64,000 bases of DNA, from the NCBI GenBank assembly GCA_965225945.1, contig CBDDBZ010000038.1, positions 416,001 through 480,000 on the forward strand, given 5' to 3'. A program made the position numbers and the translations under genes. Source of the stretch: Alphaproteobacteria bacterium. Its GTDB lineage: Bacteria > Pseudomonadota > Alphaproteobacteria > GCA-2731375. The notes below the pieces were generated by a model. It was not told the DNA's origin. It was given only the letters and a program-made list of their open reading frames with translations, and did no database searches. This document shows positions 13,700 to 59,647 of the stretch, piece by piece (the first letter of the stretch is position 1; each line of letters begins with the position of its first letter).

Positions 13700-16035
13700 G
13701 CCTCGCCGAGAGCCGCGTGGAGACGCCGGCGATCGGCGTGCCGCAGCCCCTGATCGACGGGCCGCAGAAGGTCATGGGTCGGGCACTTTATTCCGCCGAC
13801 TTCCAGGCCGCCGGCATGGCCGTCGGCCGGGTCCTCCGCAGCCCGCATGCCCATGCCCGCATCGTCTCGCTCGACACCTCGGCGGCCGAAGCGATGGAAG
13901 GTGTCGCGGCCGTGGTCACCGGGGCCGACGTCGCCGCCAGCTATGGTGTGCTGCCGATCGCGATGAACGAATTCGCGCTGGCCCGCGACCGGGTGCGCTA
14001 CGCCGGCGAGCCGGTGGCGGCGGTGGCCGCCGTCGACGTCGCCACGGCGCAAGCGGCGCTTCGCCGGATCCGGGTCGCCTACGAGGTGCTGCCGGCCTAT
14101 ATCCGCGCCGCCGACGCAGTGGCCGACGGCGCGGCGGCGCTGCACGACGATAAGCCCGACAACGTCGAGCGGCGGGTCGATTTCGAGCTCGGCGACGTCG
14201 AGGCCGGCTTCGCCGCAGCCGAGCTCGTGCTGGAGCGGGAATATTTCAACGCCGAGGTCTGCCAGGTGCAGATGGAGCCGCACGCGACCTTCGCCGAATA
14301 CGACGGCGAGCGCGAGGATTTGACGGTCCACACCTGCACCCAGGTACCCTATTACGTGCACCTGATGCTGGCCCGCACGCTGGAAATGGAGAAATCGCGG
14401 ATCCGCGTGATCAAGCCGCACATCGGCGGCGGCTTCGGCTGCCGGACCGAGACCTTGAACGTCGAGCTGATCGCCGCCCTCCTGGCGCGCAAGGCCGGCG
14501 GCGCGGTCAAGCTGCTCTCCAGCCGGGAAGAGACCTTCATCACCCATCGCGGCCGCCCGGAGACCACGACCCGGATGAAGCTGGGGCTGGCCAAGGACGG
14601 GCGGATCACCGCCGTCGATTGCGAGACGATCCAACGCGGCGGGGCTTACAGCGGCTACGGCATCGTCACCATCCTCTATGCCGGCTCGATGCTCTACGGC
14701 CTTTACGATATCGAGGCGGTGCGCTATCTCGGCCTCCGCGTTCTGACCAACACACCGCCTTGCGGCGCCTTCCGCGGCCACGGCACGGTCAACACCCGCT
14801 TCGCCTTCGAAAGCCTGCTGGACGAAGTGGCTGACGGCCTCGGCCTCGACCCCTTCGCCGTCCGCCGGGCGAACTTGCTCAGCCCGCCCACCATGACCAC
14901 CAACGACCTGCTGGTGAACAGCTACGGGCTGCCTGAGTGCCTGGACCGGGTCGAGGCGGCGAGCGGCTGGCGGGAACGCAAGGGCGCGCTCGGGCCGGGC
15001 CGGGGGCTCGGCATGGCCTGTTCGCATTACGTCTCCGGCGCCTCCAAGCCGAAGCACTGGACGGGCGAGCCGCATGCGACGGTGAACCTGAAGCTGGACT
15101 TCGACGGCTCGGTGACGCTGCTGACCGGCGCCGCGGAAATCGGCCAAGGCTCCTCCACCGTGCTGGCGCAATGCGCGGCCGAGACGCTGGGCGTCGACAT
15201 CTCGCGGATCCGCGTCGTCGCTTGCGACAGCCAGGTGACGCCCAAGGACAACGGCTCCTATTCCTCCCGCGTCACCTACATGGTCGGCAACGCCACGATC
15301 CAAGCGGCGGAAAACCTGAAGGCGCTGCTGGTCGAGGCCGCGGCGGCCAAGCTGGAGGCCAGGCCGGAGGAGATCGAATGCTCCGGCGAGACTTTCCGCC
15401 GCGGCAGCCAGGACCAGGGCCTCGAGTTCGACGAGGTGGTGGCCGCCGCGCTCGAGGGCACGGGCACCATCACCGTCAAGGGGACCTACGAGACGCTGCC
15501 GGAATCCTGGGGCGGGCGGAAATATCGCGGCGCCGCGATCGGCGGCACCATGGCCTTCTCCTATGCGGCCCAGGTGGTCGAGGTCGCGGTCGATGCGGAG
15601 ACCGGGGAGATCGAGGTGGTCCGGGTCTGGGTCGCGCACGACTGCGGCAAGGCGTTGAACCCGCTGGCCGTCGAGGGCCAGGTCCAGGGCTCGGTCTGGA
15701 TGGGCCTCGGCCAGGCGATGACGGAGGAGACCCGCTTCCACGAGGGCCTGGCGATCACCGCCAACATGCTGGACTACCGGGTGCCGACCATCCTCGATTC
15801 GCCACCGATCGAGGTCGCCATCGTCGAGGCGGCGGACCCCCACGGCCCGTTCGGCGCCAAGGAGGCGGGGGAGGGCTCGCTCGCCGGCTTCCTGCCGGCC
15901 CTGACGGCGGCGGTGGCCGACGCCATCGGCGTCCGCGCCCCCGATTTGCCGCTGACCCCGGAACGGCTGCTGGAGCTGATCGAGAAGGCCCCCAAGCGCC
16001 GAGGTTCCGCGAGATCCGTTCGAGTGCAATCGTGA
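13696..16035 (+). CDS. hcrA: 4-hydroxybenzoyl-CoA reductase alpha (molybdopterin) subunit
   Basis: Xanthine oxidase family motifs plus HcrA-like segments [47 protein letters not shown]. Confidence 0.85.
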
Positions 16036-16090
16036 TAAACGTCGTGGTCGACGACGCATCGATTCTCGATCCGAAGGGGAAAGTGAGCGC

Positions 16091-16849
16091 ATGACCGAGC
16101 CGATCCGCGTCTTCTGGCGCCCGGGGTGAACCAGTTGCCTGCGCGCGAAAGAGTTTCTTTCGTCCCGAGGTGTCGATTACGAGAGCATGAACGTCCAGGA
16201 CGATCCGGCGGCGATGGCGGCCTTGCGCGCCCTCGGCGCCCGGAGCGTGCCGGTGGTCTCCAGAGGTGATCGCTTCGTCTTCGCCCAATTGCTGAACGAG
16301 GTCACCGAGTTCCTCGAGATCGAGGCGGCGGCGGGGCCGGAACTCTCCGCCGCGACGCTGGCCGAACGGCTGGACCTGGTGCTGGAAACGGCGGCGCGGC
16401 TGATCGGCCAGTTTCCCGAGGCGCGCTTGGGCGACAAGCTGCTGAACCGCGACCGCACTTACCGCGTGCTCTGCCATCACGTCTTCCGCATAACCGAAGC
16501 CTTCCTGGAGACCATGGCCGGCGCGCCGCTGACCCACGAGATGCTGACCGCCGAGCCCGGCCCGGAGGTCGAAGGCGTCGCCGACATCACCGGCTACGGC
16601 GCAGGCGTGCAGGCCCGGCAGCAAGCCTGGTGGGAGGCGTGCGAGGACCGCGAGGGACGCCGGCCGGTCGAGACCTATTTCGGCCGCCAGACGATGCACG
16701 AGGTGCTGGAGCGCACCACCTGGCACACGGCGCAGCACGTCCGCCAACTGGCAATGGCGCTGGAGATGATGGCGATCGAAGCCGACCGCCCGCTGGATGG
16801 CGAGGCGCTGGCGGGCCTGCCCTTGCCGGAAGCCGTCTGGGACGGCTGA
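16091..16849 (+). CDS. Probable selenoprotein: glutaredoxin (UxxC) - DinB fusion, 252 aa
   Basis: ATG 16091 reads MTEPIRVFWRPG-TGA-TSCLRAKEFL, in frame with ORF 16187..16849. RSVPVV cis-Pro motif; DinB-type His motifs LCHHV and WHTAQH. Confidence 0.8.
16136..16172 (+). promoter_or_regulatory. Bacterial SECIS-like hairpin
   Basis: GCGAAAGA-GTT-TCTTTCGT stem-loop (16145..16163) with apical G 24 nt after the UGA; lower stem GCCT/AGGT. Confidence 0.65.
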
Positions 16850-16900
16850 ACCAACGGTACAAGACGGCGCCGGTGCCCCTCACCAGCCACGCCCACCATA

Positions 16901-16940
16901 TTCGTCTTCATTCGGCCTCATTCGGCCTCATTCGTCTTCC
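16901..16940. repeat. 10-bp tandem repeat x4
   Basis: TTCGTCTTCA TTCGGCCTCA TTCGGCCTCA TTCGTCTTCC. Confidence 0.7.
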
Positions 16941-17119
16941 GAAGCCCTCGACGCCGCGTGACCCGATCTCCACGGGCTCGCCGCCTGGCCATGAGCGGGA
17001 CGGGGGCGAAGAGGTGAACGCGCTAACTGAACAATGATCATAAAATGACCACATTGTCGCCAAACCGCGGGCATGAATCGAATCGCAGAATCGTCGAAAT
17101 CGCACGAGGGGTGGACACC

Positions 17120-17587
17120 ATGAACCTAGCCAAACCCGATTTCGGATTATCGATCGCCATGATGGGCGCCCTGTCGCTGGGCATTCTGCCGTTGGCGGCG
17201 AGCCCTGGCGGCGCCCGGGCGGACAGCTTGGCGAGGGCCTCGAACACCTCGCTCGGCGGTTCCCTGCAAATCGTCGAGGGATCGTTGACCGCGCTTGGCG
17301 GCAGCGCCCAGATCGCCGGCGCCAGCGTCGTCCTGGTCGTCGATTCGGTCCAGGTCGTGGGCGAGAGCGTCATCGTCGTCCTCGAGGTAACGGCGGAGGC
17401 CAGCCGCGTGATCCTTCAGGGCACGTTCGATGTCGTGCACCTTTCCACCATGGCTGTCGGCGAGACCATTACGGCCCTGCTGACGACGGTGGGCTACGTT
17501 CTCTTCAAGGGCGGTCGTCCGATCGCCTTCGTCCCGGCCGAGAAGGGCCGACATTTGGCCCACAGCAGCGTCTTCGGGAGGCAGTGA
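17120..17587 (+). CDS. Exported hypothetical protein, partner of the DUF2145 gene
   Basis: Signal peptide ending ARA; beta-rich C-terminus ending IAFVP...HS; stop overlaps the next start. Confidence 0.65.
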   Translation: MNLAKPDFGLSIAMMGALSLGILPLAASPGGARADSLARASNTSLGGSLQIVEGSLTALGGSAQIAGASVVLVVDSVQVVGESVIVVLEVTAEASRVILQGTFDVVHLSTMAVGETITALLTTVGYVLFKGGRPIAFVPAEKGRHLAHSSVFGRQ

Positions 17588-18471
17588 TGCGAGCCGGGGC
17601 CGCGGCGCTTCTCGCCGCCACCCTCGTTGCGGGGTTTCTGACCACCGGCCAGGCGGCGCGGGCCGGCGGTAGCTGCGCCGAATATGAGATCTCCGGCGCG
17701 GAGATGGTCCGCCGGGTCGATTGGGCGGCACGGATCGCCGAGCAATTGGAGGCGCTGAACCCCGAGCTCGCCCTGATCGCGCGGATCGGCAGCGACGTCG
17801 GCGAATACGGCCTGCATTACACCCATGTCGGCTTCGTCTGGCGCGACCATCCCAAGGGCCGCTGGGGACTGGTCCACGTCTTGCGGGCCTGTGCGAAGAG
17901 GAGGTCCGAGATCTTCGATCAGGGACTCTTGAACTTCCTCCTGGACGACCCCTTCGCCCTCGACGTCCTGATCCTGGAGCCGACGCCCGAATTGCAGCGG
18001 GCGATCGCGGGCCGGCTGGCCTCGAACGACGCTCGTGACTTCCACGGCCGGCGCTACAGCACCATCGCCTATCCCTTCACCACCCGCTATCAGAACTCCA
18101 ACCAATGGCTGCTGGAGCTTCTGGCCGCGGCCCAAGGCGACCTCGCGGGCGAGCGGGTCGACGATCGGGGTCAGGCCCAAAAGATCCTCGCCCGCCATGG
18201 CTACCACGGCAGCGTGCTGCGCATTCCCCCCCTAAAACGGATGCTGGCGAGGTTCGTCCGCGCCGATATGGCCTTCGACGATCATCCCCGCGAGGCCGCC
18301 TGGAGGGGCGAATTCGAGACCATCACCGTGGCCTCCATCCGGCGCGATCTCGCCCTGAACGCGCTGCTGAGCGGCGAGACCGAACTGCGCTACCCGAGGC
18401 CGCACGATTTCGAGCGACAGCGGCCTCGGCGACGCGTGGAGGTGGCCGAGACGGAGGCCGAGCATCCTTGA
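17587..18471 (+). CDS. DUF2145 family exported protein
   Basis: ALIARIG.D...YGLHYTHVGF, YSTIAYPF..RYQNSNQWLLE, FDDHP, TITV.SI motifs. Confidence 0.75.
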   Translation: MRAGAAALLAATLVAGFLTTGQAARAGGSCAEYEISGAEMVRRVDWAARIAEQLEALNPELALIARIGSDVGEYGLHYTHVGFVWRDHPKGRWGLVHVLRACAKRRSEIFDQGLLNFLLDDPFALDVLILEPTPELQRAIAGRLASNDARDFHGRRYSTIAYPFTTRYQNSNQWLLELLAAAQGDLAGERVDDRGQAQKILARHGYHGSVLRIPPLKRMLARFVRADMAFDDHPREAAWRGEFETITVASIRRDLALNALLSGETELRYPRPHDFERQRPRRRVEVAETEAEHP

Positions 18472-58383: not shown

Positions 58384-58387
58384 TTTT

Positions 58388-59412
58388 GGCTCAATTCGTG
58401 AATTGTATGCATTAGTGATAGAGTGCCTGGAACGTCAGGAGGTTGGGTTATGGACGGCAAGGGTTTCCAGGTGTGGCTTTCGGCGGCGCGCGGGCTGACG
58501 CGCGCGCAGCGGCGCGAGGCGCTCGCGGTGCTGTCGGGCCGGAGCGAGGGCGAGGCATCGAAGGCCGCGATCGAGCTTGGTGTGGACGAGGCCCGGCGCT
58601 GTCCGCACTGCGCGAGCGAAGGGGCGGTTTCGCGCGGTATGGCGCGGGGTCTGCGGCGCTACCAGTGCAAGGGCTGCGGCAGGACCTTCAACGCGCTGAG
58701 CGGTACGCCGCTGTCGGGCTTGCACCACAAGGAACGCTGGCTGTCGTTCGGGGCGTCGCTGGCGAAGGGGGAGACGGTGAAGGCGTCGGCGGCGCGCTGC
58801 GACGTGGCGGTGAGCACGGCGTTCCGCTGGCGTCACCGGTTTCTGGCGGCGGCGCGGAGCGATTCGGAGGTGCTCAAGGGGATCGTGGAAGCGGACGAGA
58901 CCTACGTCCTGGAGAGCCGGAAGGGCGCGCGCGGGCTGGGGCGCAAGGCACGGCGGCGGGGCGGCAAGGCGAAGAAGCGCGGCCTCTCGCGCGAGCAGGT
59001 ACCGGTTCTCATGGCGGCGGACCAGAGCGGAACGACGGTCAGCGCGGTGCTGCCCAGGGTCGATGCGGCGGCGCTCACGGCTGCCCTCGACCCGGTGGTC
59101 GCGAAGGACGCCCTGCTGGTCTCCGACGGCGGCGCGAGCTACCCACCGTGCGCCGCCGCGCTCGGGGTGAGCCACGAAGCACTCAACCGCTCGATGGGGG
59201 AACGGGTTCGGGGCGATCTGCATGTGCAGACGGTGAACAGCCGCCACAGCCGGTTGAAGGACTTCCTGCGTCCCCGCCGCGGCATCGCCACCCGCTATCT
59301 GGACAACTACCTGAGCTGGTTCCACCTCGTCGGCCTCGCCCCCGGCGCCAATGACCGAGCCTGCCTCGCCGCCGCCGTAACAAGGTGACGCATACAATTC
59401 ACGAATTGAGCC
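58388..59412 (+). mobile_element. Complete IS1595-family insertion sequence (1025 bp)
   Basis: Perfect 23-bp TIRs GGCTCAATTCGTGAATTGTATGC (58388..58410, 59390..59412); 8-bp TSD TAATTTTT (58380..58387, 59413..59420). Confidence 0.96.
58450..59388 (+). CDS. IS1595-family transposase
   Basis: Zn ribbon CPHC...CKGC, HTH with TAFRWRHRF, VEADETY, SDG, HVQTVN, GIATRYL.NY. Confidence 0.95.
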   Translation: MDGKGFQVWLSAARGLTRAQRREALAVLSGRSEGEASKAAIELGVDEARRCPHCASEGAVSRGMARGLRRYQCKGCGRTFNALSGTPLSGLHHKERWLSFGASLAKGETVKASAARCDVAVSTAFRWRHRFLAAARSDSEVLKGIVEADETYVLESRKGARGLGRKARRRGGKAKKRGLSREQVPVLMAADQSGTTVSAVLPRVDAAALTAALDPVVAKDALLVSDGGASYPPCAAALGVSHEALNRSMGERVRGDLHVQTVNSRHSRLKDFLRPRRGIATRYLDNYLSWFHLVGLAPGANDRACLAAAVTR

Positions 59413-59647
59413 TAATTTTTTAGTCGAGGGCGCGATCATCTCGCCGTGCCTGCTTGGGATGTGCCGGGAAACACATCTCGATGGCGGGTCGGTTGAGTTC
59501 GGCGGGAATGATAATTGGGAGATTCCCATGAGCCGTGGCACGAACGGCGGTGGCGGTCGGATTGTGGATCGCGTCCGCGCCGGCGGCAAAATTCTCACGA
59601 TGAACGGTAGGCTCGGCGATGCGCCTCTCGCGACATATGTGCTGATC

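Follow-up and report, generated by a model that had tools for sequence, protein, structure and literature searches.

A probable gene for a selenocysteine (Sec)-containing glutaredoxin joined to a DinB domain was found in a stretch of 64,000 nucleotides (nt) of alphaproteobacterial DNA, hereafter called the window (GTDB lineage GCA-2731375; GenBank assembly GCA_965225945.1, contig CBDDBZ010000038.1, positions 416,001 to 480,000 of the forward strand). In our opinion, with a probability of about 0.85, positions 16091–16849 represent one Sec-encoding glutaredoxin-DinB gene, and this figure covers the identity of the gene and not the chemistry of its product. The gene starts on the plus strand with ATG at 16091–16093, and its codon 13 is an in-frame TGA at 16127–16129. 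Reading through this codon gives the product MTEPIRVFWRPG-U-TSC-LRAKEFLSSRGVDY, which is continuous with an open reading frame (ORF) of 220 amino acids (aa) at 16187–16849 and reaches 252 residues before the terminal stop, another TGA, at 16847–16849. A preliminary description of this DNA had proposed the same start, in-frame TGA, U-T-S-C motif and single frame of 252 residues, and its coordinates were confirmed. Coordinates of all features are collected in the table below.

The TGA takes the place of the first cysteine of a glutaredoxin CxxC motif, as had been proposed earlier: the Pfam Glutaredoxin match (PF00462) covers residues 6–63 straight across the codon (E 4.5e-13, 49.6 bits at a cut-off of 22.9), and homologues carry Cys at this position. 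The expectation that standard annotation would truncate such a gene was also borne out, as the six closest database proteins (79–96% identity) are all 220 aa long, i.e., represent the truncated call, and one truncated relative of this length is labelled 'hypothetical protein' in a public source.

The read-through protein was searched against 41 genomes, namely the genome of the window (G000) and 40 relatives. As a result, 25 full-length matches were obtained with 43–100% identity (43–83% for the other orthologues), each with exactly one internal TGA, and the remaining ten matches were short, glutaredoxin-only sequences. The TGA stands in an X-U-x-x-C context in 25/25 orthologues, behind a conserved leader M..IRVFWQPG/H, and both the 12-residue leader and the downstream TSCLR.KE are kept in all of them, so that the protein is conserved on both sides of the UGA. 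The start codon lies 12 codons before the TGA in 21 of these 25 genes; the remaining four have it at −17 or −21. In the contigs of a GTDB set with one genome per species, 298 stretches encode a relative, and among the best 80 of the 298, which were analysed, the codon at the Sec column is TGA in 29 cases, TGC in 48 and TGT in three. Since the same codon TGA occurs in 25/25 orthologues and in 29/80 further family loci, it is not accidental. In the pooled set of 105 genes (25 orthologues and 80 GTDB loci), 54 carry TGA and 51 carry TGC or TGT at this column.

Among 5.8 billion proteins, a word-indexed search found 1978 hits at E ≤ 1e-5, the more distant of which are 249–405 aa long and carry PF00462. 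In an alignment of 26 sequences (A2), for which 25 of the 114 listed full-length homologues were aligned, the Sec column is occupied by Cys in all 25 homologues, within a C-T/S-S-C motif and with no break. The Cys/Sec pairs predicted in the preliminary description are, thus, found both in this alignment and in the 105 genes. When 1.84 billion representatives were scanned in full with HMMER, 1125 proteins were obtained at E ≤ 0.001 and 118 at E ≤ 1e-30; among the 150 best matches, at least 62 carry C-x-x-C, and many others start 17–53 residues into the query, as expected of truncated Sec forms. Most TGA forms come from Alphaproteobacteria and some from Burkholderiales, and the Cys forms mostly belong to one large Burkholderiales clade. 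One representative of 721 aa (P0165) contains the whole glutaredoxin-DinB unit at residues 468–717, after an N-terminal extension of about 465 aa.

Bacterial selenocysteine insertion sequence (SECIS) elements, such as those of the fdhF type or of the bSECISearch model, are stem-loops situated in the coding sequence shortly downstream (3') of the UGA. A comparable stem-loop is present directly 3' of the UGA of this gene and may serve as a site for SelB, to judge from the sequence. This hairpin, H1, has an 8-bp stem formed in the DNA by GCGAAAGA (16145–16152) and TCTTTCGT (16156–16163) around the loop GTT (16153–16155). The first base of the loop is the 24th nt after the TGA, in agreement with the spacing of 24 nt and the loop starting with G that had been given earlier. 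H1 is fully paired (8/8) in 16 of the 54 TGA genes, including that of the window and those of both congeners, and its 19 nt are identical in all 16 carriers save for the first base; this is G or A, and either can pair with U. The proteins of these carriers are only about 50–58% identical. Moreover, H1 is composed of AAA, TTT and CTT codons, which are rare here, within a gene with a GC content at third codon positions of 0.874; a neighbouring gene uses 2 AAA vs 19 AAG, 1 TTT vs 20 TTC and only 4 CTT among 77 Leu codons.

A different hairpin, H2, lies 15 nt further 3' than H1, at columns 34–39 and 45–50 counted from the U of the UGA, and has the form UCGGYC-cgugN-GRUCGA. In the 25 orthologues, it pairs in 93.5% of cells, and three of its six pairs change on both sides; its covariation score was reached by 0/500 shuffles, and slid controls were at most 56.5% paired. 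H2 is fully paired (6/6) in 37/54 TGA genes. Neither hairpin is complete in only one of the 54, and that gene has five of the six H2 pairs, whereas a complete H1 or H2 was found in 0/51 Cys genes, with a mean of 2.65 of 6 H2 pairs. The earlier designation of H1 as a SECIS-like hairpin, therefore, holds base for base in 16/54 TGA genes and 0/51 Cys genes, but it does not extend to most TGA members of the family (37/54), which use H2. Because H1 and H2 share four nt and are mutually exclusive, the family appears to use two alternative SECIS designs for the same UGA. The likeness to known bacterial elements consists in a stem-loop that follows the UGA closely within the coding sequence and bears G/U in its apical loop (GUU in H1, C-GUG-N in H2); the difference is that two mutually exclusive hairpins, 15 nt apart, occur within one protein family.

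The domain structure was studied using an AlphaFold2 model built from the 26-sequence alignment, with a predicted local distance difference test value (pLDDT) of 93.4 and a predicted template modelling score (pTM) of 0.90. In the model, a βαβαββα thioredoxin fold at the N-terminus, in which U13 directly precedes the helix 14–25, is followed by a helical bundle; Met33, with which the 220-aa ORF starts, lies inside the glutaredoxin fold. The N-terminal domain is predicted to be a glutaredoxin fold of the NrdH/YruB type with U13-x-x-C16 and a conserved Pro54: Foldseek matched it to BC3987, NrdH and cGrx1, with the PDB relatives 7c10, 3zij and 1h75, and, for residues 3–84, a sequence profile search gave 7c10 at E 3e-11 and NrdH at 2.2e-7, the Foldseek template modelling (TM) scores on the target being 0.78–0.89. 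The C-terminal half is modelled as a DinB/YfiT fold, with Foldseek matches to DR0053 (6iz2; E 4.6e-4, TM on the target 0.80–0.82) as well as to 2p1a, 1rxq, 2f22 and 3gor. Among the Foldseek and profile matches, no solved chain covers both the glutaredoxin and the DinB domains. The residues C/U13, C16, P54, H130, H212, Q215, H216, W180, W181, E207 and R208 are invariant in alignment A2. From the preliminary idea of a His-ligated DinB domain with a thiol S-transferase fold, the fold is supported by the model and three histidines are invariant, and the thiol S-transferase function is still a suggestion drawn from the fold. His130, His212 and His216 are putative metal ligands, possibly equivalent to those of YfiT.

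Some members of the DinB/YfiT superfamily are metal-dependent thiol S-transferases. In our main reading, the UGA is probably decoded as Sec by means of tRNA-Sec, SelA, selenophosphate supplied by SelD, and SelB docked on the mRNA hairpin, with the hairpin at 16145–16163 as the putative SECIS element. The NrdH/YruB-like fold carries the redox pair Sec13-x-x-Cys16 and packs, in the model, on the four-helix bundle with its His130/His212/His216 site. The mechanism that seems most likely to us, though at somewhat less than even odds, is one in which a catalytic Sec13 cooperates with a metal-binding DinB domain. The His site may bind a metal and position an electrophilic or oxidised substrate. The selenolate of Sec13 would then be a built-in nucleophile or reductant, Cys16 would resolve, and the selenenyl-sulfide Sec13-Cys16 would be re-reduced by cellular thiol systems, thioredoxin reductase or glutathione. 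By analogy, such an enzyme would be a one-chain counterpart of a glutathione S-transferase (GST) or of the hybrid peroxiredoxin-glutaredoxin (H. influenzae HI0572, 1nm3), with which it shares the principle of a thioredoxin-fold thiol module joined to a catalytic or substrate domain. This is analogy only, since 1nm3 and the GSTs are weak hits (TM 0.26–0.36 and root-mean-square deviation 10–17 Å for GST), and the partner here is DinB.

With the same decoding, another chemistry is conceivable, in which Sec13, alone or together with Cys16, would coordinate the DinB metal or interact with it from the second sphere, or would sense or bind a soft metal or metalloid, rather than act as a redox nucleophile recycled by thiols. 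Three invariant histidines and the pTM of 0.90, which suggests a fixed two-domain arrangement, are in favour of this role, and several selenoprotein families in Table 1 of a 2026 review (PMC13188914) are metal-binding. Nevertheless, we consider it unlikely, because U-x-x-C placed where helix 1 of a thioredoxin fold begins, together with Pro54, is the classical redox arrangement, and the neighbours of the gene in other genera are redox and detoxification enzymes, such as Old Yellow Enzyme (OYE), GST and short-chain dehydrogenases/reductases (SDRs).

A number of results weigh against the reading of the gene as a functioning Sec glutaredoxin-DinB gene. The hairpin region, taken as a 64-nt RNA, is no more stable than its shuffles (z = 0.06; 102/200 shuffles as good), and, since stability gives no support, the case for the hairpins comes from their conservation. 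H1 itself is not general across the 25 orthologues, where 71.7% of its cells are paired, a value reached by 120/500 shuffles. The Sec/Cys state switches only twice on the family tree, and the perfect association of hairpin and TGA, thus, reflects few independent events. As for the protein, Pfam DinB_2 (PF12867) matches residues 129–220 at 20.7 bits, below its cut-off of 24.8, though PF12867 is among the precomputed assignments of many homologues. All NCBIfam models stay below their cut-offs: YruB (47.3 vs 88.55) and NrdH (42.2 vs 85.75) score best, and the selenoprotein models Uxx_star (39.1 vs 66) and HUGP_GUXX-star (27.5 vs 325) are below theirs as well. The most serious point is connected with selA and selB. 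They were not found in G000, where TIGR00474, TIGR00475 and PF09107 gave no hit above the cut-off, PF03841 for SelA gave only a SelA-family paralogue of 37.9 bits, and the SelB profile TIGR00475 recovered only EF-Tu and other GTPases. Searching G000 by tblastn with SelA and SelB of the congener G001 yielded only EF-Tu-like and weak matches. In addition, the sequences flanking the selAB operon of G001 correspond to internal parts of two separate G000 contigs, so that there is no obvious gap at a contig end.

Other components of the Sec machinery are present. The gene of tRNA-Sec was detected at C30:103783–103873 of G000 (71.3 bits at a gathering score of 47; ARAGORN: tRNA-SeC, anticodon TCA), and SelD (290.1 bits, cut-off 125) adjoins it. 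This SelD is a fusion of 738 aa, consisting of a pyridine-nucleotide-disulphide oxidoreductase (NADH-dehydrogenase-like, Ndh) domain and SelD, a form described in the Global Ocean Sampling (GOS) paper (PMC2398784). The genes of Ndh-SelD and tRNA-Sec are about 240 nt apart (G000:C30:101300–103873; L021 9321–11875), and selA and selB are not nearby. Hence, among the sel genes to which the preliminary description had pointed, selC and selD are there, and selA and selB are missing from the 39-contig assembly. Both congeners have selA and selB side by side; in G001, a 908-aa molybdopterin-oxidoreductase-like ORF without a counterpart in G000 lies immediately upstream of them (L061 5709–8435). Among the other carriers of the gene, selA or selB occurs in 23/24 and both in 22/24, the genome of the exception being 77% complete, and 12 of the 16 non-carriers have neither.

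One alternative is that the gene is a recent relic in G000, where selA and selB would have been lost, the UGA would terminate translation and the protein would be made only by the relatives. This would be in accordance with the failure of four family searches and tblastn to find the two genes, with the synteny around the congener selAB broken inside contigs, and with the abundance of insertion sequences (IS) in this genome, where a 1-kb element occurs over 60 times. However, nine TGA-interrupted genes of selenoprotein type, including the one considered here, keep intact frames, tRNA-Sec and SelD are retained, and the leader, the TGA and the hairpin are of the same design as in the two congeners that have selAB. 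The assembly itself consists of 39 contigs with a completeness of 96.55% and a contamination of 5.58%, and its size is 6.27 Mb, the congeners having 7.4 and 8.0 Mb. Four public runs containing the window (X1, X2, X3 and X10) have contigs that also cover the congener selA and selB at about 83–88% identity, similar to the 80–82% identity of the shared selAB flanks; these samples are complex, with 403–1850 contigs aligned per run, so this cover is not assignable to an organism and is a hint only. We, therefore, regard a relic as very unlikely; an assembly gap is a far more likely, if not proven, cause of the missing selA and selB than loss. Still more improbable is that the strain truly lacks SelA and SelB, keeps tRNA-Sec, the Ndh-SelD fusion and at least nine intact UGA genes of selenoprotein type (this one included), and makes or delivers Sec-tRNA by a non-canonical route.

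That the TGA is an ordinary stop and the real gene a 220-aa DinB-only ORF from ATG 16187, the twelve codons being chance or a leader ORF, is scarcely credible: the 220-aa calls in public data and the TGA at the true end of the gene would agree with it, but the Glutaredoxin profile crosses the codon, Met33 is inside the fold, the leader peptide is kept in all 25 orthologues down to 43% identity, and the Cys of the homologues stands at this column with no break.

The Sec-glutaredoxin (Grx, PF00462, UxxC) is an experimentally verified family of prokaryotic selenoproteins (PMC13188914, Table 1; PMC9312934). The gene of the window resembles it in the PF00462 domain, in Sec replacing the first Cys of CxxC, in the existence of Cys homologues and in the SECIS-like hairpin just 3' of the UGA. 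In contrast, the known Sec-glutaredoxins are described as small single-domain oxidoreductases, whereas the present protein has 252 aa, a DinB fusion and a domain of the NrdH/YruB type. The NrdH/YruB redoxins (1h75, 3zij, 7c10), to which residues 3–84 come closest in sequence and fold, are stand-alone Cys proteins of about 75–85 aa, and the NCBIfam scores here are sub-threshold. The DinB/YfiT proteins DR0053 (6iz2), YfiT (1rxq) and BH3987 DinB (2f22) share the four-helix bundle, present here with an invariant His and H-x3-H, but these solved relatives are only 12–17% identical to this protein, and none has a fused redoxin domain.

Table 1 of the 2026 review (PMC13188914) comprises 119 families, among which Grx (PF00462) is present and a DinB fusion is absent. 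The word 'DinB' occurs nowhere in this review, in the 2022 review (PMC9312934) or in the GOS paper (PMC2398784), supplements aside. In literature searches outside the supplements, no report was found of a DinB protein with Sec or with a fused glutaredoxin; Figure S1 of the GOS paper, on fusion proteins, may matter here. Because Sec-glutaredoxin is known, while its fusion to DinB is absent from the reviews, the GOS paper and the literature searches, glutaredoxin(Sec)-DinB is filed here as a new architecture or subfamily of the known Sec-glutaredoxin.

The data support a genuine and widespread selenoprotein family that is truncated by annotation pipelines. Its size is illustrated by the 298 relatives in the GTDB contigs and by 118 clusters (50% identity) at E ≤ 1e-30, and, because public annotation systematically shortens its Sec forms, it is undercounted in surveys of proteomes and metagenomes. 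The combination of Sec-glutaredoxin and DinB adds a two-domain architecture to the prokaryotic selenoproteome. The DinB superfamily is poorly understood, and the selenol/thiol module built into this protein suggests a chemistry that depends on thiols; for enzymology, the family offers a natural Sec/Cys pair. Mutually exclusive hairpins H1 and H2, apparently serving the same UGA in different lineages, suggest SECIS turnover, which makes the family useful for training SECIS predictors and for studies on the co-evolution of coding sequences and RNA signals. The chances appear evenly balanced that Sec-glutaredoxin-DinB is an uncatalogued, widespread class of selenoenzymes, one family with two interchangeable SECIS designs.

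Eight further TGA-interrupted genes of G000 match selenoprotein families on read-through, four of them above curated cut-offs. The candidates were picked by eye from a motif list and then confirmed by NCBIfam, and their number is, therefore, a minimum and not a census. A genome-wide scan for TGA-interrupted genes by codon usage was too noisy, its training set being contaminated by antisense ORFs, and missed the query gene. Five of the eight belong to the UGSC family, with 136 and 141 bits (cut-off 125), then 115, 98.5 and 46 bits. Two of the UGSC genes encode longer proteins (553 and 583 aa), which have an additional domain at the C-terminus and resemble the 'UGSC/Unknown_1 fusion' of the GOS paper (PMC2398784). 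A PrdB/GrdB-like gene is situated on the same contig as the window, about 106 kb upstream of it.

Table. Features of the probable Sec glutaredoxin-DinB gene (positions in the window) and other TGA-interrupted genes (positions in contigs C5 to C39 of G000).
Feature	Position	Strand	Remarks
Complete selenoprotein coding sequence	16091–16849	+	252 residues, reads through TGA; architecture common to 25/25 orthologues
In-frame TGA, read as selenocysteine U13	16127–16129	+	First residue of the U-T-S-C redox motif
220-aa ORF of ordinary gene calling	16187–16849	+	Truncation, start inside the glutaredoxin fold
Glutaredoxin-like (NrdH/YruB-type) thioredoxin-fold domain	16106–16279	+	Residues 6–63, PF00462
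DinB/YfiT-type four-helix-bundle domain	16343–16846	+	Approximately residues 85–252; Foldseek, Pfam DinB_2 sub-threshold
His130 codon, putative metal ligand	16478–16480	+	Invariant in 26/26 sequences
His212-His216 codons (W-H-x-x-Q-H), putative metal ligands	16724–16738	+	H212, Q215 and H216 invariant in alignment A2
Hairpin H1	16145–16163	+	Stem GCGAAAGA, loop GUU, stem UCUUUCGU; SECIS-like
Possible extended SECIS, outer 4-bp stem GCCU/AGGU around H1	16137–16171	+	RNAfold minimum free energy and centroid prediction only
UGSC (seleno)protein genes, TGA-interrupted	C14:15407–15931, C20:72453–74111, C23:790–1308, C39:163826–164356, C5:21784–23532		Two above the NF041046 cut-off
Two AhpD_rel_CFYUT genes (AhpD-related, C-x-x-U, NF041238)	C27:74475–75602, C39:31687–32898		447 and 458 bits, cut-off 175
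PrdB/GrdB-like selenoprotein B gene (TIGR04483)	C38:308702–309919		102.5 bits, below cut-off; motif U-P-N-C

The gene starts 55 nt downstream of the large subunit of a molybdenum (Mo) hydroxylase of the xanthine dehydrogenase family. None of its neighbours in the window (the C-terminal part of the Mo-hydroxylase large subunit, the ORFs 17045 (+) and 17038 (−), and DUF2145) was found beside the 24 other orthologues, and, as the neighbourhood is not conserved, the upstream xanthine-dehydrogenase-type operon is probably incidental. In one genus (g5), the orthologue is immediately preceded, on the same strand, by an NADH:flavin oxidoreductase of the OYE type in 5/5 loci (L035, L036, L038, L044 and L046); in three of them (L035, L036 and L044), its other neighbour is a luciferase-like monooxygenase. 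The adjacency of OYE and the orthologue in this genus may be a possible functional link. Elsewhere, the neighbours include GST, SDRs and other oxidoreductases, the annotation covering 38 of 90 neighbour ORFs.

No promoter-like or terminator-like sites were found in the region 15800–17200 of the window. The RNA runs X17 and X18 contain 45% and 27%, respectively, of the sampled words of the region 15000–18000, from which expression is not claimed. Just downstream of the gene, at 16897–16940, there is a short tandem array with 10-nt units cattcgtctt and cattcggcct. Finally, a repeat of about 1 kb, presumably an IS, occupies positions 58386–59420 of the window (G000:C38:474386–475420) and occurs in more than 60 other places on most contigs; it is 96–98% identical to a copy in the congener G002.

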